Made by a program: the position numbers and the translations under genes
Shown: piece after piece, positions 5,642 through 44,653 of the stretch
Position numbering within the stretch: position 1 is the stretch's first letter
How the letters are laid out: every line of letters begins with the position of its first letter
The notes under the pieces: model-generated
What the model was told of the DNA's origin: nothing
Database searches by the model: none
What the model saw: only the letters and a program-made list of their open reading frames with translations
Source of the DNA: a virus
IMG/VR virus record: IMGVR_UViG_3300045988_126562
DNA: 64,000 nucleotides
Strand: one strand, 5' to 3'

Positions 5642-6621
5642 TGTATTCCGTCATTAATTAACTCGATCGTCTTATCTCTTCCATATTTTTTATAAAAATC
5701 TGAAATATCCTTTGCACCATAATGTTTAGGAATAAAAAGACAGTGACATCCGAATTTCTTCTTAATTTTGAACATGTTACTTATACCAGCTGAATCATTA
5801 TCATAAAAGACTACTATGACTTTAAATTTTCTCTTTAGTACTTCATACTGTTCTTCAGTTAAAAATAAGTTTTCAGAATTTGGAGCTATAGCTGTTATGC
5901 CTAATCCATATAAGCACATAACATCCTTCATGCTTTTAGTAATAACGCATAGATCCCCCGATTCAGGTAATTGTTTACTTCCTTGAATTAATTTAGATGG
6001 CCAATTAGATAAGAACCTAAATCTGGTTCTAAAAGGAAAATACATCCTCCATAATTCCATATTATTTTTGGATCCATAGTAATATCCAAAAATAAAATTA
6101 TTAGGAGATGAAGATGTAAAATAACCTCCATTTAGAAAAACTGATTTGCAAGAATATACATTAAATTTGCTCAGGGTAGATTCCTCTACTCCGTAAGATT
6201 TCCACCATTCCAATTCTTTTTTTGTAAATGGCTGTATTTGAGCTTGTAGAATACAAGATTCTGTTTCTTTAAGTATGTTTCCACTGTACTCTATAAGTTT
6301 TTCATGTTTTTTTAAATCCTTTCTATGTATAATTCCAAAATCATTAGCTATAATTTGTAAAGCTTTATGAAATGAACATCCATATTTATACATTACTAAA
6401 TTAAAACAATTTCCATAAAAATCGCCTCTAAAATCTTTAAAGATTAAGTCTCCACGCTTATTTTTAAAAAAAGCACATGTGGGATTTTCATCCTTCCTTA
6501 AAGGAGAACAAAACAACCCTTTGCCAACATGGACACCTAAATAGTGTTCCATAATGGCTTCTTGGGATAGTCTCTGTAATATTAATTCCTTAGTTATTGT
6601 TGGTTCAATTTGTATTTCCAT
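5545..6621 (-). CDS. DNA primase (Toprim-type)
   Basis: 358 aa with an N-terminal Cys segment (CSPLRKDENPTC) and acidic Toprim-like motifs (VITKSMKD, VVFYDNDSAG). Sits in the replication module. Confidence 0.55.
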   Translation of the reverse strand: MEIQIEPTITKELILQRLSQEAIMEHYLGVHVGKGLFCSPLRKDENPTCAFFKNKRGDLIFKDFRGDFYGNCFNLVMYKYGCSFHKALQIIANDFGIIHRKDLKKHEKLIEYSGNILKETESCILQAQIQPFTKKELEWWKSYGVEESTLSKFNVYSCKSVFLNGGYFTSSSPNNFIFGYYYGSKNNMELWRMYFPFRTRFRFLSNWPSKLIQGSKQLPESGDLCVITKSMKDVMCLYGLGITAIAPNSENLFLTEEQYEVLKRKFKVIVVFYDNDSAGISNMFKIKKKFGCHCLFIPKHYGAKDISDFYKKYGRDKTIELINDGIQWLNTRLKNLSRKNVNQNMETNMTIPLLNTKD

Positions 6622-6658
6622 ATACTATCAATTAAACCACAAAGTTACTAAGAAATTT

Positions 6659-7351
6659 TTATAACTCAAAATCTAATGGATCAGAGTCTTCTGCTTGAAC
6701 AGGTTGTCCTACTGCATTTGGTTTACTTGCTCCTGAGTCTAGGGAAGGCATCTTAGTAGGAGTAGCTGTCTCCATATCCTTCTTCCTATCCAGTTCGTAA
6801 GGAGTAAATCCTAGTTTCTGACCAATACAATTATTTGTAATAACTGCTTCTCCACCTGGCTCGAATACAGACAATAAATAAGGAAAACGAGGTTTATTGT
6901 CCTTATCTCCTATTAACTTAATTTTGGTCTGGAAACCAATTTTTGATTTGGTTTCTGATTCTAAGAACTTACATAACTTCTCAAATGTGGTACTTTTCCC
7001 AGATAATTTATTTAAGGCTTCTGGACAAACCTCAGCTAATAAATGTCCAATGGTTTTAGTAAATACCTCTAGATTAGAAGGATTCTCCATTTCATGTCCA
7101 TTGCTGTTTTTACGGGTAGTTCTTTTCTCATCTCCTGGTTTAGGTGCAAACAGAGTATGAGTAAATTGACCTTCATCGTTCTTGAATTTGATTCTAAGAA
7201 CTTCGTACTTCGCAGTAGGATCTTTCTTACCATCAAATTGTGCATATTCTACACCATCAAATTGTACATCGTGAATTTCCCAAGCTTTTAATAAAGGTAA
7301 AGAAGTTGATACATATTTTTCGTTGGCTCCAAATCCAATATTCATTTCCAT
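6659..7351 (-). CDS. hypothetical protein (possible ssDNA-binding protein)
   Basis: 230 aa in the replication module, with an acidic C-terminal tip DSDPLDFEL like SSB-type tails. Confidence 0.4.
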   Translation of the reverse strand: MEMNIGFGANEKYVSTSLPLLKAWEIHDVQFDGVEYAQFDGKKDPTAKYEVLRIKFKNDEGQFTHTLFAPKPGDEKRTTRKNSNGHEMENPSNLEVFTKTIGHLLAEVCPEALNKLSGKSTTFEKLCKFLESETKSKIGFQTKIKLIGDKDNKPRFPYLLSVFEPGGEAVITNNCIGQKLGFTPYELDRKKDMETATPTKMPSLDSGASKPNAVGQPVQAEDSDPLDFEL

Positions 7352-15492: not shown

Positions 15493-16158
15493 TTATTTTC
15501 TACCTAGTCCATTGTAAAAATCCAATATAGCATTTTCCTTACGGAGCCATGACGCTTCTTCCTTTGCCATATCAGATATAGTTCTGGAAATTGATTCCTC
15601 TTCTACTTGTTCTTTTACAAGTCTTCCTTCTTCCTCACTTTCTCCATTTAACCACTGAAAGGTAGCCCAATCAGCTTCTTTCAGAGCTTGGTCTACAATT
15701 TTGTTTATAGACATTGTAGTTTCTATTTCCCTATCTACTGTAGCCTCAAAAGGCATTATTCTGTCTTTTATATCTACATTAATAGGTGGAACAGGAGGAT
15801 ACTGAAATACAGCATCATTATCAGTTAAATATTTATATATCCATTCATGATGCAAATATTCCTCTTTAGCTCTGCCTATCCAATATATTTCTAATTTGGG
15901 TAAGCCTTCTACTGCAAAATAGTTAGCAAATGTTCTATACAGGCTATGATTAGCTAATTCTGCGGACATTTGTTTTACTAGCATTTCTATCATAGGAGTA
16001 CTTAATGTGCACTCTCTTCTAGACTTATCTATAATTTTGTTAGTGTAAGTCATAGTAGGTTCAGCTGCAACCGTCATTACTCCTTTATTTGGTGTGTCAA
16101 CCTGTATTGGATTTCCTCTTTCGTCTAGTTTTCTCATTAGTATATTCTGTAAAACCAT
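15493..16158 (-). CDS. ferritin-like di-iron carboxylate protein
   Basis: ELANHSLYRTFANYF...GRAKEEYLHHEWIYKYL matches the ferritin E..Y / EE..H helix pattern. The start may lie downstream at 16077. Confidence 0.55.
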   Translation of the reverse strand: MVLQNILMRKLDERGNPIQVDTPNKGVMTVAAEPTMTYTNKIIDKSRRECTLSTPMIEMLVKQMSAELANHSLYRTFANYFAVEGLPKLEIYWIGRAKEEYLHHEWIYKYLTDNDAVFQYPPVPPINVDIKDRIMPFEATVDREIETTMSINKIVDQALKEADWATFQWLNGESEEEGRLVKEQVEEESISRTISDMAKEEASWLRKENAILDFYNGLGRK

Positions 16159-19546: not shown

Positions 19547-19912
19547 ATTATATAACACAGAATTGCTACACTAATTTTACTTAGTCCCTGTAGATCTAAT
19601 TGCTAGCATAGGTGCTCTACAGATGTATCTCATTCGATTTATCCGGCCGGATTTACGAACTCTTGAATTGTAAGGTGGGTTTCCTCCCACGCTTCCGTGT
19701 TATAAAAAATAAGTAATTACCTAAGATCTCTAACAGATTAATACACTTGCTGTTAAAGATTACCTTAACCACCTCTACGCTTCCGTACCTTCACACCAGT
19801 GTATTGGTGTGGAAGCCTACCTCATTACTTTATTATATCTGCTTTCACGTATCAGACTAGTTCCTTCTTCTTGAAATCACGCTGAGATTCCACCCCAGAT
19901 GCCGGCTCGGAG
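19547..19912 (-). ncRNA. unassigned structured RNA candidate (366 nt)
   Basis: ORF-free and G+C-richer, flanked directly by tRNAs. Hairpins GTGGG-TTTCCT-CCCAC, CACACC..GGTGTG nested in GCTTCC..GGAAGC, and CTGTAGA..TCTACAG. Confidence 0.4.
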
Positions 19913-22263: not shown

Positions 22264-22734
22264 TCAATAATGTGATGCGTTCTTACCAGAAAAAGTATCG
22301 GTTTGGGAATGACAATTAGGACATAGTAATCTAAGGTTTTCTATTCTATTATCCTTATTATTTCCATTAATATGGTCTAATTGTAATGATAGAGGCTTTT
22401 CTTGCCACTCATTAATACCACATATACTACACTTGTATTCTAGTAAATTAGATTCCAATAGCCTCTTCTTTAGAGAAGTGTTATTGGTGTAAGTAGAATC
22501 TTCTACTAGAATATCTTCTAAGGACTTATACCTTTCAGGTGAGTGATTTTTAGCATATCTATTAAAGTGGGATGTATCTATATCTAGCTCTCCTATCTTA
22601 TCTTTAATTAGTTTAGTAACTCCGCCTCCCTTTGACCTATAACCAAGCTTAAAAGCTATTTCGGAAACTGTCTCAGATTCTTTAACTATATTACTAAACT
22701 CTTCATCACTAAATTTACTTATTAAAGTTCCCAT
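22264..22734 (-). CDS. HNH homing endonuclease
   Basis: Track ORF trimmed to Met22 because the upstream codons translate tRNA-Phe. CSICG...LDHINGNNKDNRIENLRLLCPNCH. Its stop codon lies inside the 3' half of the split tRNA. Confidence 0.8.
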   Translation of the reverse strand: MGTLISKFSDEEFSNIVKESETVSEIAFKLGYRSKGGGVTKLIKDKIGELDIDTSHFNRYAKNHSPERYKSLEDILVEDSTYTNNTSLKKRLLESNLLEYKCSICGINEWQEKPLSLQLDHINGNNKDNRIENLRLLCPNCHSQTDTFSGKNASHY

Positions 22735-22739
22735 ATAGG

Positions 22740-22811
22740 TGGGACAGGAGGGAATTGAACCCCCAACGCCAGGTTCTTCAAACCTGCGCTCTACCATTGA
22801 GCTACTGTCCC
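22740..22811 (-). tRNA. tRNA-Phe(GAA)
   Basis: GGGACAG/CTGTCCC acceptor, loop TTGAAGA, T loop TTCAATT. Lies inside the insertion that splits the flanking tRNA. Confidence 0.85.
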
Positions 22812-23552: not shown

Positions 23553-23577
23553 ATCTTATATATTTTACTAAATTTTG

Positions 23578-23648
23578 TGATTCCAGTCGGACTCGAACCG
23601 ACGTATTTGGTTTTAGGGACCAACGGATAGCCACTCTCCCATGAAATC
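23578..23648 (-). tRNA. suppressor tRNA, anticodon CUA (amber)
   Basis: GATTTCA/TGGAATC acceptor, anticodon arm TTGGT-CCCTAAA-ACCAA (C at position 33), T arm GTCGG-TTCGAGT-CCGAC. Confidence 0.75.
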
Positions 23649-24633: not shown

Positions 24634-24699
24634 AGGATTCATATAAACAGTCCAATATATCCCTAATATACTCTAGTTTAAATTTGCTGTAAGAATCCT
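24634..24699 (-). ncRNA. modular RNA unit (mini form)
   Basis: Closing helix AGGATTC/GAATCCT. 5' boundary TTACAGCAAAT, 3' boundary CCTGTAA. Confidence 0.45.
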
Positions 24700-25237: not shown

Positions 25238-25253
25238 ATCTTAAAATTTAATG

Positions 25254-25594
25254 TGGACGATGAGGGATTCGAACCCTCGTCCTAACTACTTCTCAATAAC
25301 ATAGTATATGCGAAATTACCTTTTTATAGAAGGCTAACTAGGGGAAGCCGATTGGCATCCACTCCACCACTCCATTATAAGTTGGAGAACTATAGAAACC
25401 AATGGTCATTTCTGTTCCTAAGCTGACTTACACTCGACTCTCTTTGCAATTAAGCAGCGATACGAACTTCGTCGATTTCGCGAGAGAAAGAAATTGCATT
25501 ATTCTTTCCATTTAATTGTTTGTACTTATAAGGTAGTCACAACCTTTTCACCTATGTTACCGTTCGTCATAGCAGTCAAAAGCCTGTATCGCCC
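25254..25594 (-). ncRNA. ssrA: tmRNA (transfer-messenger RNA)
   Basis: The 5' GGGCGAT pairs with the 3' ATCGTCC-A, giving G3:U70 and A73. T arm GAGGG-TTCGAAT-CCCTC. Internal tag frame GCA ATT TCT ... GCT GCT TAA (25450..25497) encodes AISFSREIDEVRIAA. Confidence 0.8.
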
Positions 25595-25898: not shown

Positions 25899-26297
25899 TT
25901 ATAATTCTTTTTGACTAGCTGTTACAGCCAATTTATCACATCTATTGTTATATTTATCATCTTTATGCCCCTTTACCCAAGTAAAAGTAACCATGTGATG
26001 AAACCTCATTGCCTTATCGAATCTCTTCCATAGGTCTACATTTTTTCTTCTTTGCCAACCCTTGACAGCACATCCAATAACATACTGTGAATCAGTTATT
26101 ATATTTAGAGCAGATGGTTCAGAAATGGATTCCATAGCTACTATACATGCCATCATTTCCATCTGATTATTTGTAGTATTAATATATGTCTTACTATATT
26201 CTAATACTTCATATCCATCTTTATCTACAATAATTAAGCCTATTCCTCCTTGCCCTCTGGCATAGGAATAGGCTCCATCGGTATAAACTGTATACAT
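25899..26297 (-). CDS. rnhA: ribonuclease H (type 1)
   Basis: YTDGA, NNQMEMMA, ITDSQYV and WVKGH...NRCDKLA supply the DEDD catalytic pattern. Confidence 0.85.
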   Translation of the reverse strand: MYTVYTDGAYSYARGQGGIGLIIVDKDGYEVLEYSKTYINTTNNQMEMMACIVAMESISEPSALNIITDSQYVIGCAVKGWQRRKNVDLWKRFDKAMRFHHMVTFTWVKGHKDDKYNNRCDKLAVTASQKEL

Positions 26298-28391: not shown

Positions 28392-29228
28392 CAAGCTATG
28401 AGTCTTAGCTTCGACTATGTCTTAACCATATCTTTCGACTTAGGTTGCTGGTATATAGTCTGTACACATTTATAAATTGGGTTGGGCGTCAGGTGTCCCT
28501 CCGTTGTTTTCAGCCTATGTTTTCAAGGCATCCTTCTTTTAAAACATACGAACAAAAACGAATGTTCCCAATTTAACTTAGCTCGGCGTTATTTACATTT
28601 ATAAGGCTGTAACCTTCACCGAATTAGCCAGCTTCTACTTCAAGAGTTTCCTCTTGAGCACTCAATACCTTTCCTGAATAATTGTCTGTTTGTGCATGAC
28701 AATTTGGACAAAGAACTTGTAGATTTTCTAAACGATTATCTGTATGAATTCCGTTTAAATGGTGTAATTCAAGTGAAATAGGATGTCCTAACCACTCAGT
28801 TAAACCGCAGCATTCACATTTATGTTCTTTTATTCCTTCAGACAGAAGACGATTACGGATATTATGAGAAGTCCATCCTGAATTTTCAATTAAAATTTCA
28901 GAAATGTCTTTCTTTTTGATTGACGGATGTTCTCCACTTTTTAATCCTTTATTCCATCGTGCTCCTGTAAAATGACTCATATCTAAATTTAATTGTTGTA
29001 TCTTCTTTTTTACTGTATTAAGATTACCTCCTTTTGGAGATATTCCGATAATTCTACACACTTCGGCGTAAGAATGTCCTTCTTTTACAGCATTAATAAA
29101 TTGTTCTTCTGTATATTTTTTACTTGCCATGGTATATTATTTTAATACACTATTATACTAATAAAAATTGTATACACAAAAAATAATTTTAACTTAATAC
29201 TTCCAATTAATTTAGATGTAATTTTTTT
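28392..29228 (-). mobile_element. group I intron with HNH ORF in the tRNA-Leu anticodon loop
   Basis: Exon ends in U and intron ends in G. The 3' non-coding part carries R/S-like elements GTACAGACTATATACC and TAAGACATAGTCGAAG (P7 pairing GACTAT/ATAGTC). Confidence 0.7.
28624..29130 (-). CDS. intron-encoded HNH homing endonuclease
   Basis: Paralog of 22264..22734. CECCG...LHHLNGIHTDNRLENLQVLCPNCH. Confidence 0.8.
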   Translation of the reverse strand: MASKKYTEEQFINAVKEGHSYAEVCRIIGISPKGGNLNTVKKKIQQLNLDMSHFTGARWNKGLKSGEHPSIKKKDISEILIENSGWTSHNIRNRLLSEGIKEHKCECCGLTEWLGHPISLELHHLNGIHTDNRLENLQVLCPNCHAQTDNYSGKVLSAQEETLEVEAG

Positions 29229-29708: not shown

Positions 29709-30785
29709 TTACATTATTTCTTTATCACAGTTAAACATAGACAATTCTATTCCTCTGAACTTAGAATATATTGGTTGAAGATCAGAAAAGCTACATTCTT
29801 TTAGATTGTTAATATAAGTTAGTTGGTCTTTGAGATCCCAACAAGTAAAACATATTTTGGAGGAAACGTTTATACCTTCTTTTTCCGTTATAATTCTGTT
29901 ACAATTAATGGAATGGTTAAGAAGATCTAAATCTAATTTAGCGTATTTTAAAGATCCTTGAAACTTATTATATACATTAATTTCTTCAGGATTAACAATG
30001 TTCTCTAGTGGTTCTGATAATATAGGCCCATTTCCATGTCTAGTTATATATATTCTAGATACATAATTTACTATTATATCTTTCACACCAATAGACTTTA
30101 TAATTTTATAAGCATTTTCTCCAGTTGTATTAGAAGGAGTAGTGTGTGGATAGAATCCAAATTTTTGATCTAGTAGTATTCCTTGAGATCCTTCAAATAT
30201 AATATTAGAAAAGCTAGGTTTTAAGAATCCTATTTTATTTCTTTTGAACCAGTTAATATAAGATTCTGCTAATTCTTCTATATTAACACAGGTTTCATTA
30301 TAATACTCTAATATAGAATTTAGCTTGGAGAGCAACACTTTTTTATTTTGACATTCTTCCACTGTAAGGGAGCAGCATTCCATAACTCTTTTAATAGCCG
30401 GCCAATATCCGGTTCCTACGGTTCCATGTTTTAAATTATCCTTATCTTTTCTTTGAAAAGATATATCCATAGGAGTAATTACTTGACATAAGGGATTATA
30501 TATTACCTTTGGAGTTACATTGAACTTTTCTAATAAAATTTTACTTTCAACTATAGCAGACAAGGGGTTTACAAAACAATACTCTGACCAATAAGTAGGA
30601 CATCCTTTAAAAGTTCCACTTCCAAAATTACTGAAAACGTGTTTTTTGTTTCCAGAAATAACTGTATGACCACTTTGTGATCCGCCACTAAATCTTACTA
30701 TAATGGAGTTTGAGTCAGATAGGTTATGCACTATCTGACCCTTGCCCTCGTCTCCAAAAAAGGCTCCTAAAACTATATGTATCAT
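29709..30785 (-). CDS. adenylosuccinate synthetase family protein, short form (PurA/PurZ-like)
   Basis: 358 aa with P-loop GDEGKGQ, RFSGGSQSGHTV, GTVGTGYW, FEGSQG and TRHGNGP. Confidence 0.7.
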   Translation of the reverse strand: MIHIVLGAFFGDEGKGQIVHNLSDSNSIIVRFSGGSQSGHTVISGNKKHVFSNFGSGTFKGCPTYWSEYCFVNPLSAIVESKILLEKFNVTPKVIYNPLCQVITPMDISFQRKDKDNLKHGTVGTGYWPAIKRVMECCSLTVEECQNKKVLLSKLNSILEYYNETCVNIEELAESYINWFKRNKIGFLKPSFSNIIFEGSQGILLDQKFGFYPHTTPSNTTGENAYKIIKSIGVKDIIVNYVSRIYITRHGNGPILSEPLENIVNPEEINVYNKFQGSLKYAKLDLDLLNHSINCNRIITEKEGINVSSKICFTCWDLKDQLTYINNLKECSFSDLQPIYSKFRGIELSMFNCDKEIM

Positions 30786-34350: not shown

Positions 34351-34480
34351 AAGTTAGTTTTACCAGAATAGGACTCGAACCTATAACCTCTTGATAAAAT
34401 TCAAGGCTCTACCAATTGAGCTATACGTCTCTGGATTTAAGTTGGTAGACGTAAATTTTTTATATTGCTGTTCCTAACTT
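34351..34480 (-). ncRNA. modular RNA unit with tRNA-like domain (non-canonical order)
   Basis: Closing helix AAGTTAG/CTAACTT and boundary GAACAGCAAT. Inside: acceptor-type hairpin TACGTCT..AGACGTA, D arm TA-GCTC-AATTGGTA-GAGC, hairpin CTTGA-ATTTTA-TCAAG, T arm ATAGG-TTCGAGT-CCTAT. Confidence 0.45.
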
Positions 34481-35369: not shown

Positions 35370-35472
35370 AGAAGACTATGCCGACTTGCACTTACGGCTG
35401 GATTTGAACCAGTTTAATTTGAATTTCAGTCAAATTTGTGAACCATTTTATTTGATTTGCTGTAAGTCTTCT
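35370..35472 (-). ncRNA. modular RNA unit with T-loop hairpin
   Basis: Closing helix AGAAGACT/AGTCTTCT. Boundaries TACAGCAAAT and TCTGTTA. Inside: TTTGA-CTGAAAT-TCAAA and CTGG-TTCAAAT-CCAG hairpins. Confidence 0.45.
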
Positions 35473-35480
35473 TATAAATC

Positions 35481-35584
35481 AGGATACCTAAACTCAATTG
35501 TGCTCCAAATAGCAATTCTCCACATTGGTGAATATAAGACTCGAACTTATTATAACTAGTTACTGAATTTGCTGTCTGTATCCT
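35481..35584 (-). ncRNA. modular RNA unit with circularly permuted tRNA-like domain
   Basis: Closing helix AGGATAC/GTATCCT. Order: T arm ATAAG-TTCGAGT-CTTAT, acceptor hairpin ATTCACC-AATGT-GGAGAAT, D arm GCT-ATTTGG-AGC. Confidence 0.55.
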
Positions 35585-35875: not shown

Positions 35876-36973
35876 TTAATCCTGAGGAATACTCATCATA
35901 ATTGTAGCACGATTCCAATTATTTTCCTCATATTGTTGTACTTTATCTCCTTCAGCACTGACTACCAAACGAGATTCCTCTACTCCATATTTTACTAATA
36001 CCTCTTTCACTGATTCAGCTCTCTTTTTACTTAATTCCATATTATATTCTGGAGTTCCTGTATCAGCGTCTGCATATCCAGTAATAGAAATACGTATATC
36101 TTTATTATCCTTCAAATAAGTAGCTATGTTCTCTAAATTTGCCATTTGATCATCAGCTATCTTAGATGAATTGATAGTAAATCTTACTGTAGTAGGAGCC
36201 ACCTCTTTTAAAACAACAATATTTTCTACTGTTACAGTATCAATAGTGGTTACGACCTTTGGAGCTTTTTCACATTCCTGTCTAAGTTTATTGATTTCCT
36301 CATTTAGAGCGTCAATATCCTCTTGATCATAAGATGGGATGTATGTGAATCCTCTAGTCCCATCATGATTTTTAAACTTATATGTGATGCCAGCTGTTAA
36401 ATTACACATTCCATCATATCTAGCTCCTCCTACTACTCCGTCGAACTTATCATTAAGAGCAGACATATTTCCTTCTATATTAAGCTGAATAGATTTAGAT
36501 AGATCAACATTTACCTGAACTCCTACTCTAGGAACTACATAATCTCCTATTGGTAGTACTCCATTATCAAATGTATGTGCATAACCTACTCCTCCTATCA
36601 ATACTAAGTTAACTGGTCTGTCATAATTCTGAGAGAATAAATTTAACGGATTCAGCATTGCATCTAAGTAAAATCCATATCTGTTAATAACAGAAATTTC
36701 ATTTGTAGGAACAACATGATTCTGTCCCCACTCTCCTTGAATACGAGTTCCCAAAACTGGAGTCCAATATTTATTAAGGGAAACATTTACCGTTGGACCA
36801 AAAATTCTCTTTGTGTCCACTGATTTGTAATTATCCCCAAATGTGGCATTAGTTCCAGCTCCTACACTGATAGACCAATTATCAGTGAATTTATACTTCG
36901 GCATTCTTAACTCTTGTGCATTTAAGCACATAACGCTCATAAGAGCAATTAAAAGAAATAATACTTTCTTCAT
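35876..36973 (-). CDS. OmpA-family outer-membrane protein
   Basis: Signal peptide, beta-barrel-like N-terminal half and a C-terminal OmpA-like domain (ITGYADADTGTPEYNMELSKKRAESV). Confidence 0.75.
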   Translation of the reverse strand: MKKVLFLLIALMSVMCLNAQELRMPKYKFTDNWSISVGAGTNATFGDNYKSVDTKRIFGPTVNVSLNKYWTPVLGTRIQGEWGQNHVVPTNEISVINRYGFYLDAMLNPLNLFSQNYDRPVNLVLIGGVGYAHTFDNGVLPIGDYVVPRVGVQVNVDLSKSIQLNIEGNMSALNDKFDGVVGGARYDGMCNLTAGITYKFKNHDGTRGFTYIPSYDQEDIDALNEEINKLRQECEKAPKVVTTIDTVTVENIVVLKEVAPTTVRFTINSSKIADDQMANLENIATYLKDNKDIRISITGYADADTGTPEYNMELSKKRAESVKEVLVKYGVEESRLVVSAEGDKVQQYEENNWNRATIMMSIPQD

Positions 36974-38010: not shown

Positions 38011-38076
38011 AGAATACTTTGTTTAGCTTGATAATTTAAAAGATTATTGCTTAAAATAAATTGCTGTAAGTATTCT
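38011..38076 (-). ncRNA. modular RNA unit (mini form)
   Basis: Closing helix AGAATACTT/AAGTATTCT. Boundaries ACAGCAAT and TCTGTTA. Confidence 0.45.
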
Positions 38077-38081
38077 TATAC

Positions 38082-38205
38082 AGATAACCATTGTTTTATA
38101 AACTGGCGCTCTACCAACTGAGCTATTACTAAGGCACTTCTTAGTAAATGAGGCTCGAACTCATGACTTCTAGTTGGGACAAACATAATTTGCTGTCGGT
38201 TATCT
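38082..38205 (-). ncRNA. modular RNA unit with circularly permuted tRNA-like domain
   Basis: Closing helix AGATAACC/GGTTATCT. Order: ACTAG-AAGTC-ATGAG-TTCGAGC-CTCAT, acceptor hairpin TTACTAA-GAAGTGCC-TTAGTAA, D arm TA-GCTC-AGTTGGTA-GAGC, then CCAGT. Confidence 0.6.
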
Positions 38206-38227
38206 AAATATTATTAACTTAACCGAG

Positions 38228-39493: not shown

Positions 39494-39970
39494 CTATCTA
39501 TTATTAATAATGTAATTTAGAGTTCCTTTACTAGAAATATTGTATTTATACATTAACTCCTTATAAGACATTCCATTTTGCCTATCCATTTGTATTTTAA
39601 GTACAGTGTCATCAGAGTATTTTTTATTAGCATTTGAAGATTTTTCTTGTCTTACTTTTTCTGAAATATCCATCATATTATCGGAACTCGTACCAATGTC
39701 TATATTTGAAATAGAATTATTTAGTAGGTTTCCATCTAAATGCCTAACTACTATATTATCATTATATATTTTTTCTCCGAATTTGCTATATGCTTGGAAT
39801 CTATGAAAATAAACTTTTATGATTTTTCCTTCTATTCTAAATGAAAAATATTTGTATTTACTCTTACCACTAGTTCCTACTGATTTATTATGTTTATTAT
39901 AAACTATTCCATCAGGAGTTATTGTATAACCTCTTTCTTTAGCTACTATTTCAAATTTACTGTAATCCAT
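39494..39970 (-). CDS. free-standing HNH (HNH_3-type) homing endonuclease
   Basis: FHRFQAY...VVRHLDGNLLNNSISNIDIGTSSDN plus a C-terminal HTH-like tail. Ends in TAG; lies next to tRNA-fMet. Confidence 0.65.
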   Translation of the reverse strand: MDYSKFEIVAKERGYTITPDGIVYNKHNKSVGTSGKSKYKYFSFRIEGKIIKVYFHRFQAYSKFGEKIYNDNIVVRHLDGNLLNNSISNIDIGTSSDNMMDISEKVRQEKSSNANKKYSDDTVLKIQMDRQNGMSYKELMYKYNISSKGTLNYIINNR

Positions 39971-40834: not shown

Positions 40835-40992
40835 AAGAGACCACCTTTTTTATTTGTTTTAAATCCAGGCTAAACTACTAACTTCTAGGTATTTCAGAAA
40901 GTTAGATAAGGATTCGAACCTTATTTCTTTGTCTAATTGAAATTTAATTAAAACTATAAAGATTAAGAAAATAATCTTGCTGTATGTCTCTT
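40835..40992 (-). ncRNA. modular RNA unit with circularly permuted tRNA-like domain
   Basis: Closing helix AAGAGAC/GTCTCTT and boundary ATACAGCAAG. Order: T arm TAAGG-TTCGAAT-CCTTA, extended acceptor hairpin TCTAACT..AGTTAGT, D arm TTTA-GCCTGGATT-TAAA. Confidence 0.55.
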
Positions 40993-41001
40993 TATAATAA
41001 C

Positions 41002-41119
41002 AGAAGACCTTTAAATACGTTGCTCTACCAATTGAGCTAAAATGAGTAAACTCATCTACAGGACTCGAACCTATAACCCACGGCTTACCAGGCTAAATAT
41101 ATATTGCTGCTAGTCTTCT
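41002..41119 (-). ncRNA. modular RNA unit: circularly permuted tRNA-Thr(GGU)-like gene
   Basis: Closing helix AGAAGAC/GTCTTCT. Order: GC-CTGGTAA-GCCGT-GGGTT-ATAGG-TTCGAGT-CCTGT-AGATGAG-T-TTA-CTCATTT-TA-GCTC-AATTGGTA-GAGC-A-ACG. Confidence 0.65.
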
Positions 41120-41125
41120 TTTACT

Positions 41126-41279
41126 TGGGAGAATTTCCTATCTCCCGCAATAAAGTGCTAAGGTATCATAATGAAATGAGGCTCAGCGGTTTCGACTTTA
41201 CTAGGATAGTTCACGATGTTTTGGCAATCATCTAACTATTGTCAACCTATTATTATGCCAAATTGTAGTTGACTTGTTG
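41126..41279 (-). ncRNA. unassigned structured RNA candidate
   Basis: Hairpins GGGAGA..TCTCCC, GTCAAC..GTTGAC and TTGGCA..TGCCAA. No ORF. Confidence 0.3.
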
Positions 41280-41352
41280 GGGAGAAGCTAAGAATCGAAC
41301 TTAGTCCTTTATATCCACAGTATAACGTTCTAGCCGTTAAACTACAACTCCC
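41280..41352 (-). tRNA. tRNA-His(GUG) with encoded G-1
   Basis: G(-1) opposite C73, loop CTGTGGA, T arm CTAAG-TTCGATT-CTTAG. Two U-U mismatches in the acceptor. Confidence 0.75.
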
Positions 41353-41537
41353 ATTTATATTGAAATGAAAACGACAGTTCTGCAAGAGGAAGAAAAGGTA
41401 GCTTACCTATTTATGATAGGTAATATACCCGTAGGAAGCATTCTGGGATCCATTTTCTCTAAGAATTTCCCAATTTTCCTAATTACTTTCTTCATAAACT
41501 GTAAAAATTTAGTTAAACATATAATTTATCTATGTAG

Positions 41538-41610
41538 CCGAAAGCGGGGGACTCGAACCCCAAACTCCACAGTGACAGTGTGGTATTATGCCAATTTCAC
41601 TACGCCTCCG
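41538..41610 (-). tRNA. tRNA-Asp(GUC)
   Basis: CGGAGGC/GCTTTCG acceptor (two G:U pairs), arm CCACA-CTGTCAC-TGTGG, discriminator G. Confidence 0.75.
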
Positions 41611-41722
41611 TTGTTGTAGCATCTATCCTCACGAACCAATGCTACTTTTATTTATTATCATGGCAAAATGATATACTTCACCTCAAAGTTTGATATTTCT
41701 ATCAGGGACAATGAGGGATTTG

Positions 41723-41816
41723 TGGGCCGAGAGAGATTCGAACTCCCCTACCGCAAAGTCCATACGACTATTTGTTAAAGCGGGGTGGATTTACAGTCCA
41801 CTGCCGTTATCGACCC
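41723..41816 (-). tRNA. atypical 94-nt tRNA-like gene with Tyr (GUA) anticodon arm
   Basis: GGGTCGA/TCGGCCC acceptor, perfect arm GTGGA-CTGTAAA-TCCAC, T arm GGGAG-TTCGAAT-CTCTC. Only 8 nt stand where the D arm should be, and the variable insert is ~35 nt. Confidence 0.5.
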
Positions 41817-41824
41817 ATTAATAC

Positions 41825-41891
41825 AGAGTGCAAAGATAGTTATTTTATTCCCAATAATAAAATTTAAATTGTTAATTGCTGTTAACACTCT
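41825..41891 (-). ncRNA. modular RNA unit (mini form)
   Basis: Closing helix AGAGTG/CACTCT. Boundaries TTAACAGCAAT and TCTGTAT. Confidence 0.4.
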
Positions 41892-41900
41892 TATTTTTAC

Positions 41901-41963
41901 AGAAACCTTTTGTGGTTATGTTCATTAATGGTAAACATTTATAAAATTTGCTGTTAGGCTTCT
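41901..41963 (-). ncRNA. modular RNA unit (mini form)
   Basis: Closing helix AGAAGCC/GGTTTCT. Boundaries TAACAGCAAAT and TCTGTAA. Confidence 0.4.
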
Positions 41964-42018
41964 TGTTTTTGGATTTATGCCTTATAGTGTCTTATAATTT
42001 TATTAGCTTCCGAATTAC

Positions 42019-42126
42019 GGGGCACTCTTCCACTTTTTATTATTTATATTCTACTATAATACATAAATCCGATAATTTAAATTAAAAGTAATGATAGATG
42101 TATGAAAAATTTGCTGTTTGTGCCCC
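42019..42126 (-). ncRNA. modular RNA unit (AT-rich insert)
   Basis: Closing helix GGGGCAC/GTGCCCC. Boundaries AAACAGCAAAT and CCCGTAA. Confidence 0.4.
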
Positions 42127-42147
42127 AAACGTCATCAAGATAATTTG

Positions 42148-42223
42148 TAGGGTAAGCGGGATTCGAACCCGCGATCTCTTGCTCCCAAAGCAAGCGCCCT
42201 AGACCGGACTGGACCACTACCCT
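42148..42223 (-). tRNA. tRNA-Pro(UGG)
   Basis: AGGGTAG/TTACCCT acceptor, arm CTTGC-TTTGGGA-GCAAG, T arm GCGGG-TTCGAAT-CCCGC. The 5' end overlaps the upstream TAG stop. Confidence 0.85.
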
Positions 42224-42911
42224 ATTGTTTATTTGTATAAACTTTAGCCTTGTCTACTATATTTCGTAAATCTGAAAACGAAGAAGCTTGCTCTATAAGC
42301 CAACCAAAATATACTTTTCTTTGTTTACTCATATTATTCTCTATTAGCTTATCTATTCTGTCACTAGTCTTAAGTTTCATCAAAGTGGACTTAGTTTCTT
42401 TAAAGCGGGCATCTATAATATCAGAAAGTTCTTTTTTCATTGCATTCTTTCTCTCTTGTAAAGATGCGCCAGAAATAGCAAATGCTGTCCTCACCTTTTT
42501 CTTTTCTCTATTAGTAAGACGACTAACGTCAAAACCATTATCAATAAGAAATTGATCATTATTTATATTAGCACTCCAAGATGCCACTTCTCTATCATCT
42601 ATTTTATTCTCCTCTGGCACATTAAGCAAAGTACTTAGAGTAGAATTAAATTTCTTTGCTGTTTTCAATAAGAGTAAGACTTCTGAATATGTGCAAAGTT
42701 GTACTGTTCTGCCCCAACAAACAGTGTATAGATTTTTCCGGTTGTTATGAGTAAGAATATATAAATGATTACTATGACAGGCCATTTCATTACTTGTATG
42801 ATCACTAACTCTCACTCTAAGCATTCCTATTACAAAGTATTCAGAGTTAGTATTTTGAGCCTTACTAGATTTAGAAGAAAGCTTTCTTAAAGCGTCATAA
42901 ATTTTGTCCAT
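42222..42911 (-). CDS. hypothetical protein
   Basis: 229-aa ORF ending in TAG, between the Ro-like gene and the RNA array. Confidence 0.55.
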   Translation of the reverse strand: MDKIYDALRKLSSKSSKAQNTNSEYFVIGMLRVRVSDHTSNEMACHSNHLYILTHNNRKNLYTVCWGRTVQLCTYSEVLLLLKTAKKFNSTLSTLLNVPEENKIDDREVASWSANINNDQFLIDNGFDVSRLTNREKKKVRTAFAISGASLQERKNAMKKELSDIIDARFKETKSTLMKLKTSDRIDKLIENNMSKQRKVYFGWLIEQASSFSDLRNIVDKAKVYTNKQ

Positions 42912-42926
42912 GATAATTTATATTAC

Positions 42927-42944
42927 GGGAGTCCGAAGACTCCC
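42927..42944 (-). terminator. strong hairpin (terminator/attenuator candidate)
   Basis: GGGAGTC-TTCG-GACTCCC immediately after the stop of 42950..44653. Confidence 0.45.
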
Positions 42945-42949
42945 AATTA

Positions 42950-44653
42950 CTAAATTGTTATCAGATTTAACAGTTCCTGATTCATAGCTGCCTCAAACAA
43001 CTCTCTAGCTGTTTTAGGTGTACTAGGTTCAGGATTTTCTGGAGTAGGTTCTTGTCCTAAAAGAAAAGCAATTCCTGAAGGATCTAAACCTCCCATATAG
43101 AAGAATCCCGGAGTATCTGCATACCCCTCGAATTTAGGTCTAATTTCTCTGCTGTAGGAACTGTTAGGTATATCCCACAGAACAATCTTGAAATCATCAA
43201 CATAGTCTTTAGGGAATCCAGCGTCTAGCAACTTTTTCTTGAATAAGGCAAAGTTCGTCTTTGATTCTTGTGTAGAATCTTGATAGCCATATCCATAATA
43301 TGACTGCCCTCTGTTAAATTCTCCATCGCTTACACATAACAATCCTTTTGGGAACTGATTAATAGGAGTTCCTTTTCTGAAAATTTCGACAAATAAGTCA
43401 GCGATTCCTAAGAAGTTAGTACTTCCATAAGATTCTGCCCTATCATTGAAATACTTCTCAGTAGGAGTTTTACCATTCCACAATCTCAATGTAGGTTTGC
43501 TAGCAAACTCCACATATCCACTCGCAAATGGCCCTTCTAACAAGTAAGAGAAGTAGAGAGCAATAGCTTTGGCAACGTCGTTACTTGATACATTAGTCCC
43601 ATTTACATTTGAACTCATAGACCCAGAGGTATCTCTCGCAACTAAGAAAGTTGACTTAGTATTCATTCCTTTCTTTGCTGTTTCAATAAGTCCTCCAAAC
43701 TGTTTATCTACAGTCATTTTCTTGTAAGTAGGACTATTATATTCAATTCCTTTGAATAACTCATATACATATCCAGTAAACTTGGCTACTGGTTGTTTTA
43801 GAATCCATTCTTCGTATGCGGTTTCTAAGTTATTATTCTTTAGGAAATTTCCAGAAACTAGCAAAGCCAGAGCACGACCATGCACAGTAGAAAAGTTTAT
43901 ATTCAACTTTCCCCTTGAGATTTGCTGTTGCCATTGATGAGCCGTTCCTGACACTTTCAATTGACGATATTGCTTATAGTTGAGAGAGTGATACTGGTCA
44001 GCCTTAAACTGTCCCTTACCAAACAATCTATGTGCAATATACTTTCCAATAATCGTATCCGCCTGTGCTTCCAAAGTACGGGCTTTAGAACGAGCTTTAA
44101 TAGTAGGAAGATATTTCTTTACTAAATTGCAAGTATTAGGATTTTCCAGACCAGCTAGAATAAAATCACCTAATGCTTTCCAATCTAGCACTTTTCCTTT
44201 CCACCCATGAAATTGAATATCATAGGACATCATTTGGAAAATATCCTTCCAACAACCAGCTGCTACAAACAAAGGAAGATTGTTATAGAATACTTCAGGG
44301 TAATTTATAGCCACCCAAATCATTCTCATAATCCCTTCATGCTTCATTCCCTGCCCTCGCTGAACAGAAGTGGTTTCTGAACCATCTAATAATTCAACCT
44401 TTCGAGTTACCAAACGAATATAGAATACCAATTTCATTGCATCAAGCTGATTGATATTCCATAATGTACGCATATCCTTATCAATATCAGCATAAGGACG
44501 CAACTGCCTGTACTGAGAAATTAAAGAAAACTGGTCTGTAAATGGATCTCCTGTAGAAGTTAATTTTACAGCACCATTGCCACTCAAAGTGATTTCTGCA
44601 ATACTCTTTACTGGTTCGTTGCCAAACAGATAGCTTTGTTTCTTGTCAAACAT
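42950..44653 (-). CDS. Ro60-like architecture protein: helical N-terminal domain + C-terminal vWA (MIDAS)
   Basis: 567 aa. N-terminal STGDPFTDQF...MKLVFYIRL...GCWKDIF pattern, which I recall from DUF2828-type proteins. C-terminal VARDTSGSMSS DxSxS MIDAS motif. Confidence 0.55.
   Translation of the reverse strand: MFDKKQSYLFGNEPVKSIAEITLSGNGAVKLTSTGDPFTDQFSLISQYRQLRPYADIDKDMRTLWNINQLDAMKLVFYIRLVTRKVELLDGSETTSVQRGQGMKHEGIMRMIWVAINYPEVFYNNLPLFVAAGCWKDIFQMMSYDIQFHGWKGKVLDWKALGDFILAGLENPNTCNLVKKYLPTIKARSKARTLEAQADTIIGKYIAHRLFGKGQFKADQYHSLNYKQYRQLKVSGTAHQWQQQISRGKLNINFSTVHGRALALLVSGNFLKNNNLETAYEEWILKQPVAKFTGYVYELFKGIEYNSPTYKKMTVDKQFGGLIETAKKGMNTKSTFLVARDTSGSMSSNVNGTNVSSNDVAKAIALYFSYLLEGPFASGYVEFASKPTLRLWNGKTPTEKYFNDRAESYGSTNFLGIADLFVEIFRKGTPINQFPKGLLCVSDGEFNRGQSYYGYGYQDSTQESKTNFALFKKKLLDAGFPKDYVDDFKIVLWDIPNSSYSREIRPKFEGYADTPGFFYMGGLDPSGIAFLLGQEPTPENPEPSTPKTARELFEAAMNQELLNLITI

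Follow-up and report, generated by a model that had tools for sequence, protein, structure and literature searches.

A Ro60-like phage protein of the DUF2828/DUF7788 family and a candidate family of partner RNAs in a tRNA island

Ro60-Y RNA particles are a classic, sparsely distributed RNA-surveillance system. In bacteria and phages Ro60 is partnered with adjacent YrlA RNAs (PMC4201824, PMC12135203), with precedents in the association of Ro60, Y RNA and PNPase (PMC4201824) and in Thermus phage phiLo, whose Ro60-Yrl attenuates host PNPase (PMC12135203). In phage Bas63, gp130 is reported to resemble Ro60 in structure and to counter Ppl defence, and a stretch of tRNA genes follows its gene directly; the authors of that work suspected that Y RNAs were hidden among the tRNAs and did not identify an RNA partner (10.1101/2024.10.10.617714). 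A third point of comparison is the Class I RNAs of Dictyostelium (RF01414), which are abundant, 42-65 nt long, of unknown mechanism and reported to be unique to Dictyostelia, a conclusion drawn after searching one bacterium only (PMC7919456). Here we analysed 64,000 nucleotides (nt) of viral DNA (IMG/VR record IMGVR_UViG_3300045988_126562; the window), in which a gene at 42950..44653 on the minus strand lies in a tRNA island with 11 stem-closed RNA modules. We consider it likely that this locus specifies a Ro60/Y-RNA-type ribonucleoprotein (RNP) whose protein comes from a family other than that of Ro60 and whose RNAs, here candidate partners, form a new family. The original prediction for this DNA, made from its letters, had proposed a candidate phage Ro/Y-RNA system, and that reading gains support from the predicted fold and from co-occurrence of gene and modules.

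The gene is an ATG-start open reading frame (ORF) of 567 amino acids whose translation includes FLVARDTSGSMSS and the MIDAS (metal ion-dependent adhesion site) string VARDTSGSMSS. Residues D341, S343, S345, T412 and D443 were unchanged in 48 diverse homologues, and the MIDAS motif is therefore complete. Pfam placed residues 341-515 in the vWA-type family DUF7788 (PF25043; 33.3 bits against a cut-off of 27.1), while the single sequence scored 20.8 bits against DUF2828 (PF11443), under the cut-off of 29. Despite that score, the N-terminal domain appears by sequence to belong to DUF2828, because most of the close homologues listed have a precomputed match to PF11443, the profile of the window clade aligned with that of the canonical DUF2828 clade over 456 columns (hhalign; probability 99.9%, E 1e-32) and the protein falls in phrog_850, 'RNA-binding protein' (PHROG; E 7e-26). 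The canonical clade takes in PORT_68 of Enterococcus phage Porthos (DUF2828 E 7e-27, DUF7788 E 4e-46), and the FelixO1 and Moogle proteins match both families at E 1e-28 to 1e-43.

The family is large. In a large protein collection the window protein had 1,482 relatives; the 120 matches listed were all at least 64% identical, most of them carried a precomputed DUF2828 and/or DUF7788 assignment, and one was named "DUF2828 family protein". PORT_68 as a second query gave 4,636 relatives at E up to 1e-3, and 710 phage records carried DUF2828/DUF7788, including FelixO1, A511, LeBron, KVP40-like and Campylobacter phages. "Ro-like RNA binding protein" is already an annotation of DUF2828 proteins.

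An AlphaFold (AF2) model from a 48-sequence diverse alignment reached a predicted local distance difference test score (pLDDT) of 84.7 and a predicted template modelling score (pTM) of 0.85, superseding an earlier, mediocre model (pLDDT 68.5) from a close-homologue alignment. The model consists of helices alone as far as about residue 329, and a Rossmann-like vWA domain starts at residue 336, giving a helical N-terminal repeat domain (~35-330) followed by vWA with the complete MIDAS (336-560), the two-part build that had been read from the ORF beforehand. When the model was compared to the PDB with Foldseek, the best 12 matches were all Ro60, over 507-620 columns at E 2e-7 to 1.4e-4 and probability 1.00: frog (2i91, 1yvr, 1yvp), human (9nen, 9nep, 9nf8, 9nfa), Thermus phage phiLo (9l5y) and Deinococcus (2nvo) structures were among them, and below them came isolated vWA domains only. 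The modelled protein thus appears to have the Ro60 fold, a helical repeat ring closed by vWA/MIDAS; a TROVE-like N-terminal fold, on which the original prediction had staked its case, was found along the full length of these matches. Since these matches are full-length and sequence alignment to Ro60 is limited to the vWA domain, the protein is one of Ro60-like architecture in the DUF2828/DUF7788 family, outside Pfam TROVE.

A stem scan in Python identified 11 modules (M1-M11), all on the minus strand. They share a handle: a terminal stem of 6-9 bp, whose 5' strand begins with (A)G and whose 3' strand ends in CU followed by G, and a single-stranded ACAGCAA that starts 0-3 nt past the 5' strand. 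The complement of the 5' strand recurs 45-150 nt downstream and is followed by (U)G. All 17 copies of ACAGCAA in the window lie on the minus strand, where ~6.8 would be expected over both strands, and none of 100 shuffles reached 17. The copies at 19753 and 23808 were not counted as modules because they have neither a closing stem nor a model match. Minimum free energy (MFE) folds kept the terminal stem and generally left the motif unpaired. We also built a covariance model, R1, from an alignment of 90 short modules taken from other phages only and ran it on sequences outside its training; it matched nine modules of the window, all on the minus strand, and gave no match on the plus strand. The original prediction had seen about four modules and had overlooked the common handle.

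Four modules form a short class. M2 (41901..41963, 63 nt; AGAAGCCU-a-ACAGCAA...AGGUUUCU-G) matched R1 at 47.8 bits (E 1e-8), kept its terminal stem with the motif unpaired in the MFE fold and scored weakly, at 18.4 bits, with the Rfam Class I model. M3 (41825..41891, 67 nt; AGAGUGU-ua-ACAGCAA...GCACUCU-G) scored 27.6 bits with R1 (E 7e-4) and 23 bits with Class I. M7 (38011..38076, 66 nt; AGAAUACUU-ACAGCAA...AAGUAUUCU-G) gave the best R1 match of the window (57.4 bits, E 5e-11), with 28.9 bits for Class I and a fold z-score of -3.1. M11 (24634..24699, 66 nt; AGGAUUC-uu-ACAGCAA...GAAUCCU-G; R1 44.1 bits, E 8e-8) lies 18 kb away from the protein gene, adjoining tRNA-Lys and the transfer-messenger RNA (tmRNA) gene. 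M1 (42018..42127, 110 nt; R1 22.6 bits, E 0.011), the first module after tRNA-Pro, pairs GGGGCAC with GUGCCCC around ACAGCAA; its orthologues in three related loci (L003, L004 and L005) have different stems that still pair (GGGAUGC/GCAUCCC, GGAGUGC/GCACUCC and GGGACAC/GUGUCCC). M1 and the four short modules (63-67 nt) have no tRNA features.

Two longer modules carry the complete YrlA order of T arm, acceptor-like hairpin and D arm within the 5'/3' stem. M4 (41002..41119, 118 nt; AGAAGACU-a-GCAGCAA...GGUCUUCU-G; R1 20 bits) had an MFE fold in which the terminal stem encloses the T arm AUAGG-UUCGAGU-CCUGU, a hairpin of 6-7 bp capped by the loop UUUA, and the D arm GCUC-AAUUGGUA-GAGC. The Rfam YrlA model matched it at 41015-41082 (35.7 bits, E 8e-5), and it is 76% identical to unannotated DNA adjoining the DUF2828 gene in Enterococcus phages. 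M6 (38081..38206, 126 nt; (U)AGAUAACC-g-ACAGCAA...GGUUAUCU-G) encloses a T arm followed by a hairpin of 8 bp and the D arm GCUC-AGUUGGUA-GAGC; YrlA matched it at 23.6 bits over model positions 1-114, and its fold z-score was -3.8.

The remaining four modules have partial tRNA-like parts. M5 (40835..40992, 158 nt; AAGAGAC-au-ACAGCAA...GUCUCUU-G), found by stem scan and MFE and missed by R1 because its insert is long, combines the T arm AUAAGG-UUCGAAU-CCUUAU with a hairpin of 9 bp and a D-like arm. M8 (35481..35584, 104 nt; AGGAUAC-ag-ACAGCAA...GUAUCCU-G; R1 21.5 bits) has a T arm, a hairpin with imperfect pairing and a D-like arm of 4 bp, and M9 (35370..35472, 103 nt; AGAAGACU-u-ACAGCAA...AGUCUUCU-G; R1 46.9 bits, E 2e-8; z-score -2.4) a T-arm-like hairpin CUGG-UUCAAAU-CCAG. 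M10 (34351..34480, 130 nt; AAGUUAG-ga-ACAGCAA...CUAACUU-G; R1 15.4 bits) contains an unpermuted, acceptor-less tRNA-like body with D, anticodon-like and T arms, which the Rfam tRNA model matched at 34367-34424 (34.7 bits, model positions 7-64). Permuted tRNA-like modules are present where they had been proposed, with the full layout in M4 and M6 only and partial or absent tRNA features in the others; the proposed likeness to YrlA holds for the topology of these two, and does not extend to the Rfam gathering score or to the Ro-binding helix, as described below.

When 29 long modules (24 from other phages) were aligned with MAFFT, unconstrained RNAalifold returned the T arm, an adjoining 6-bp hairpin and the D arm, in that order. 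Compensatory changes were present in 14 of the 15 pairs of the tRNA-like domain, and its helices were 93% paired, compared to 62% in shuffles and 34-49% with slid partners. Thus the YrlA-like topology holds beyond this phage, and the 5'/3' stem is supported apart from these helices by stem scan, covariation and MFE. A second recurrent interior of long modules, distinct from the YrlA-like layout, has a T arm and then a conserved ...GCC..GAGGCACUUGGUGUGGAAUAUCGG (L016 8410-8521, L065 7746-7858, L012 7818-7932, L057 8223-8346, L050 8454-8579 and L062 8508-8635).

A protein-based scan of IMG/VR gave 71 loci, of which the 70 besides this phage, many of them mutually related, encode proteins of 40-65% identity. 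Across the 71 loci ACAGCAA occurred 382 times on the gene strand and 53 times on the opposite strand. Qualifying closing stems were found for 228 of the 373 gene-strand copies in the 70 other loci (61%), compared to 10.7% with shuffled downstream sequence, and the opposite strand held one strict module. Modules are concentrated close to the gene, on its downstream or its upstream side, with up to nine within 6 kb of it in relatives, and often stand in tight tandem with a GAUA spacer (..CU-GAUA-AG..). Unique modules comprised 130 of 47-80 nt and 76 longer ones, with a T-loop motif in 65 of the long and one of the short. In the alignment of 90 short modules the 8-bp stem is 95% paired and every position covaries except the outermost A-U, with a covariation score of 0.87 against 0.23 in shuffles, figures that are partly circular because the alignment was picked by a stem requirement. 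This circularity does not touch the asymmetry between strands, the control with shuffled sequence or the independent model matches.

R1 extended the association to phages and to bacterial and archaeal genome records outside its training. Its 25 matches in Lbo-JY46, Porthos, Moogle and two close relatives all fell on the strand of the gene, and it recovered modules in 10 of 15 loci that were empty by strict scan; FelixO1 has four modules (locus L182, 5750-5826, 5917-5984, 6371-6448 and 6462-6592), with three in A511 and two in CP81. Phages with modules at the flanks of the gene are Leptolyngbya phage Lbo-JY46, Enterococcus phage Porthos, Citrobacter phage Moogle, Salmonella phage FelixO1, Listeria phage A511 and Campylobacter phage CP81. 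In mycobacteriophage LeBron three modules were found by eye, followed by one strong terminator; R1 scored them weakly, at 13-14 bits, which is not significant. Among 80 bacterial and archaeal loci, whose homologues are 21-27% identical save in three loci, all 62 R1 matches lay on the gene strand, most within 700 nt upstream, with the consensus AAGRCNC-(UU)ACAGCAA...GNGYCUU-G. Conversely, when IMG/VR was searched with a DNA pattern of two modules in tandem, at least 19 of the 23 sites returned had an adjoining DUF2828 gene. Protein and modules are thus kept together on the same strand in related and unrelated phages, as the original prediction required, and the RNA pattern leads back to the gene.

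Several of these loci have further features. The three A511 modules (L183, 2649-2922) lie directly upstream of the DUF2828 gene gp178, and an RtcB-type 'tRNA splicing ligase' gene, gp173, and an HD phosphohydrolase gene lie within 1.4 kb downstream of it (5803-7014), an arrangement that resembles the bacterial rsr-yrlBA-rtcBA operon. Two public annotations appear to need attention: CP81 ORF140 (L185, 2818-2978) overlaps two predicted modules and is probably no gene, and the RefSeq record of Moogle (L007, 8186-11945) has its tRNAs on one strand, whereas Rfam matches tRNAs on the other. Modules upstream of DUF2828 genes in bacterial genome records (L148 4570-4637; L114, L153, L172 and L128) often contain CUUACAGCAA, and a module from a Carnobacterium metagenome-assembled genome (MAG) carries the exact Dictyostelium 11-mer CCUUACAGCAA. 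A Promethearchaeota MAG (L143) is among the module loci, and a group I intron (92 bits) lies near the DUF2828 locus of a related jumbo-phage contig (L063, 12767-13054).

The handle also occurs at the start of the mRNA that encodes the protein. In 17 of 66 relatives (~13 distinct sequences) the gene opens AAG-AUG-UUY-RAC-AGC-AAA and the complementary RACAUCUG follows 38-60 nt downstream, which places the start codon within the 5' strand of a module (for example L036 5921-5984, L058 5999-6070 and L063 5888-5930); several further relatives have one-mismatch versions. Because it is embedded in this mRNA start, the handle is tied to the DUF2828 protein and not to a neighbouring gene. This layout, in which the start codon would be occluded, is that of classic translational autorepression by an RNA-binding protein, and as a sequence pattern it suggests autoregulation in these relatives: excess protein may bind the handle within codons 1-20 and occlude its own start codon, a translational feedback loop that the pattern predicts for many relatives and not clearly for this phage. 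The start handle, which spans about the first 20 codons, also constrains protein residues 3-5 (N/D-S-K).

The surroundings of the window locus are those of a large tRNA island. The window forms part of a 105-kb IMG/VR contig, IMGVR_UViG_3300045988_115313. From ~14 to 51 kb every gene is on the minus strand; in this region ARAGORN and Rfam identified 26 tRNAs and a tmRNA. The tmRNA (25253-25594, tag GKNNAISFSREIDEVRIAA) and a tRNA with a CUA anticodon, of amber-suppressor type (23577-23648; labelled Pyl by ARAGORN), had both been foreseen. A PTH2-like gene had been foreseen too and was not found among the tested ORFs of at least 110 amino acids; a Pfam scan of 30 further ORFs between 14 and 56 kb gave no RNA-repair or PTH2 gene. 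Three HNH endonuclease ORFs are dispersed in the island (39494-39970, 28624-29130 and 22264-22797), in the same arrangement as HNH ORFs in the FelixO1 tRNA region. Auxiliary genes among the tRNAs encode adenylosuccinate synthetase (29709-30785), RNase H (25899-26297), an OmpA/beta-barrel outer-membrane protein (35876-36973) and a ferritin-like protein (15493-16158). A tRNA-Tyr-like gene at 41723-41817 combines the anticodon loop CUGUAAA with an acceptor stem of 7 bp and a well-formed T arm; its D arm is nearly absent and its variable region is ~36 nt long. ARAGORN did not call it, Rfam matched it as tRNA-Sec at 20.6 bits only, and it is 80% identical to unannotated DNA of Bacteroides phage crAss001 and relatives. 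Because OmpA/outer-membrane-protein-barrel and DUF6383 genes are present and this one tRNA-like stretch resembles crAss001, the host is probably a Gram-negative bacterium of the Bacteroidota.

Beyond the fold similarity, the covarying motif and the genomic linkage, we infer that the protein binds the modules, that these are made as discrete transcripts and that the particle acts during infection. The stem and ACAGCAA would be the binding site of the DUF2828 protein, and the variable interior would be the effector part of each RNA, as in Y RNAs: a YrlA-like tRNA mimic in M4 and M6, partial mimics in M5, M8, M9 and M10, and an AU-rich interior in M1, M2, M3, M7 and M11. By analogy to Ro60-Y RNA-PNPase, the rsr-yrlBA-rtcBA operon, phiLo Ro60, the anti-Ppl FelixO1-type homologue and the nearby RtcB of A511, the tRNA-like RNAs may tether or decoy host tRNA-recognising enzymes or exoribonucleases. 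The translation apparatus might thereby be protected or remodelled in infection, which would fit the place of the locus in an island of 26 tRNAs and a tmRNA.

The handles might instead be cis-acting operator or sponge sites on long transcripts, through which the protein regulates itself or its neighbours and from which no discrete small RNAs (sRNAs) are made. The handle inside the coding start of many relatives would suit such sites, and independent promoters or terminators for single modules were not evident in the window scan. However, each module has its own covarying stem, conserved ends and a fixed spacer, and in many the interior is an elaborate, covarying tRNA-like domain, for which an operator would have no use. 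The three LeBron modules with one strong terminator resemble an sRNA operon, and canonical Y RNAs, like the similar Class I RNAs of Dictyostelium, exist as discrete molecules (PMC4201824, PMC7919456). On balance we regard operators without discrete RNAs as improbable.

Modules that sit between tRNAs could also be punctuation or processing signals of polycistronic tRNA transcripts (RNase sites, stabilisers, promoters or terminators) whose nearness to the gene is incidental. The constant GAUA spacer does resemble a cleavage site, and the gene abuts tRNA clusters also in FelixO1, Moogle, Porthos and CP81. Lbo-JY46, however, has five tandem modules right after the gene and its sole tRNA 2.7 kb upstream, and in LeBron and most bacterial loci modules stand beside the gene without tRNA arrays. 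The motif also stands within the protein's start region in 17 of 66 relatives, and of the 23 places returned by the module-pattern search at least 19 adjoin a DUF2828 gene. Promoter- and terminator-like sites were not enriched between 33.5 and 45.3 kb, a scan that is uninformative because the host is probably of the Bacteroidota, whose promoters it leaves out. Taken together, we find it quite unlikely that the modules are tRNA punctuation. It is more improbable still, by a wide distance from plausibility, that they are decayed or rearranged tRNA pseudogenes and chance repeats beside a vWA/MIDAS protein with a non-RNA role: the tRNA-island location, the T and D arms in several modules, the resemblance of M10 to a tRNA without its acceptor stem and the homing HNH endonuclease genes dispersed in the island would fit decay, but the handle persists even in the five of the 11 modules that are devoid of tRNA features, the succession of T arm, hairpin and D arm recurs, with compensatory changes, in phages of different phyla, strict modules in relatives number 228 against 1 by strand, and model matches adjoin distant bacterial homologues.

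Several results weigh against our preferred reading of a Ro60/Y-RNA-type RNP, in addition to the relatedness of many IMG/VR loci and the partial circularity of the short-module covariation. TM-scores to Ro60 were moderate (0.28-0.51), and ring geometry may therefore differ from that of Ro60. A sequence-level link to TROVE was sought and set aside: TROVE (PF05731) had no Pfam match at E up to 1, the Pfam match to vWA_Ro60 was faint, a PDB-sequence profile search reached Ro60 only at E 0.63, and the family profile aligned with human Ro60 (query sequence checked against 9nen_A) in the vWA domain alone, in register (hhalign E 2.7e-4, probability 42%). Of the two families against which the original prediction had proposed to check the protein, DUF2828 was thus borne out and TROVE, by sequence, was not. 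No Rfam RNA model identifies the modules at its gathering threshold: matches at that level, in the window as in 11 module-rich loci, were confined to tRNA, tmRNA and a group I intron. YrlA (RF02553) matches stayed under the gathering score of 69 (35.7 and 23.6 bits in the window, 47.8 at best in Porthos), and Class I matches under 41.5 (28.9, 26, 23 and 18.4 bits in the window; 39.3 in the best relative, Lbo-JY46, and 32-34 in others). In ValKK3, a KVP40-like phage, no module lies within 3 kb of the gene, and the Pfam scan of window ORFs gave no RNA-repair enzyme. The start of the window gene has only a degenerate handle (AGAUA...ACAAGAA...UAUCU-G), too degenerate to call as autoregulatory.

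Compared to the Ro60/YrlA-YrlB system (PMC4201824) and the phiLo Ro60-Yrl1/2 system (PMC12135203), the locus shares the helical repeat ring with vWA/MIDAS, here by Foldseek, partner RNA genes on the same strand within a few kb, closure of each RNA by a 5'/3' stem, and the pairing of one permuted tRNA-like class (T arm, hairpin, D arm) with one short class, as in YrlA and YrlB. Matches to the YrlA model are weak but significant both here (35.7 bits) and in Porthos (47.8 bits). The window protein belongs to DUF2828/DUF7788 and not to Pfam TROVE; its candidate RNAs have a simple stem with single-stranded ACAGCAA, whereas the YrlA consensus has a bulged double helix. The Ro-binding form of that helix (cggCga-AUGCu...AcUuG-ucGccg) was not found, the window match covering only model positions 23-88 and leaving the outer helices unmatched. 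In the DUF2828 system the number of RNA genes per genome is also much higher, 11 here, and many relatives build the handle into the mRNA of the protein itself. Among TROVE proteins, the pairing of phage Ro60 with Y-like RNAs is already known, and the Ro-likeness of DUF2828 proteins is on record in annotations and in the Bas63 preprint. An RNA family with this handle, breadth, per-genome multiplicity and mRNA mimic was not described in the literature searched or in Rfam 15; a literature search for the motif string gave primers only, and DUF2828 was mentioned in unrelated papers. A much larger, functionally uncharacterised protein family thereby gains conserved candidate RNA partners, with a module signature that is simple and searchable and that Rfam 15 misses at gathering scores.

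The comparison with Bas63 gp130 is closer in protein family: the FelixO1 and Moogle proteins fall in the same Pfam families as the window protein (DUF2828 and DUF7788), although the FelixO1-type protein is only ~24% identical to it. The candidate RNAs of FelixO1 sit between tRNAs and are not mis-called as tRNAs, in contrast to the guess that Y RNAs were hidden among them. The modules thus supply candidate RNAs for a reported anti-defence protein (Bas63 gp130 against Ppl) and account for unannotated gaps in well-studied phage tRNA islands.

Dictyostelium Class I RNAs resemble the short modules in other ways. By sequence, the short modules appear to carry the Class I feature set of a 5' G, terminal stem, motif, variable interior and length of ~60 nt. 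In both, the 5' G is conserved, the terminal stem covaries (6 bp in Dictyostelium, mostly 7-9 bp in phage modules), (C)UUACAGCAA adjoins the 5' strand, with the Dictyostelia-invariant C6, C9, A10 and A11 invariant in the modules too, the interior is variable and AU-rich, and the 3' end reads ...C-UG, with a median length of ~60 nt in short modules. DdR-21, for example, has GUUGAC-cuu-ACAGCAA...GUCAAC-UG (PMC7919456 supplement), compared to (A)GAAGACU-u-ACAGCAA...AGUCUUC-UG in the window. The Rfam Class I model matched phage modules at E down to 2e-4 and up to 39.3 bits (Lbo-JY46), and with a sequence-only hidden Markov model of phage modules 12 of 14 Class I RNAs ranked above 1,400 shuffles. 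In contrast, no module match reaches the gathering score of 41.5 bits, phages do not conserve the CCUU prefix in full although the ACAGCAA core is common to both, the phage and bacterial loci have neither the Dictyostelium upstream sequence element (DUSE) promoter ~60 nt upstream nor a dictyostelid host, and the known direct binder of Class I is the RRM protein Rnp1A. DUF2828 proteins occur in eukaryotes too. DUF2828 signature peptides had no match in the partial Dictyostelium proteome files of the PMC7919456 supplement, which are incomplete. It is possible, if doubtful, that the stem-ACAGCAA RNAs and the dictyostelid Class I RNAs belong to the same RNA family and that DUF2828 is the missing conserved partner. 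The resemblance offers a lead on the 20-year-old question of Class I RNA function, and common membership, if true, would make these systems a second Ro/Y-like RNP lineage across viruses, bacteria and eukaryotes.

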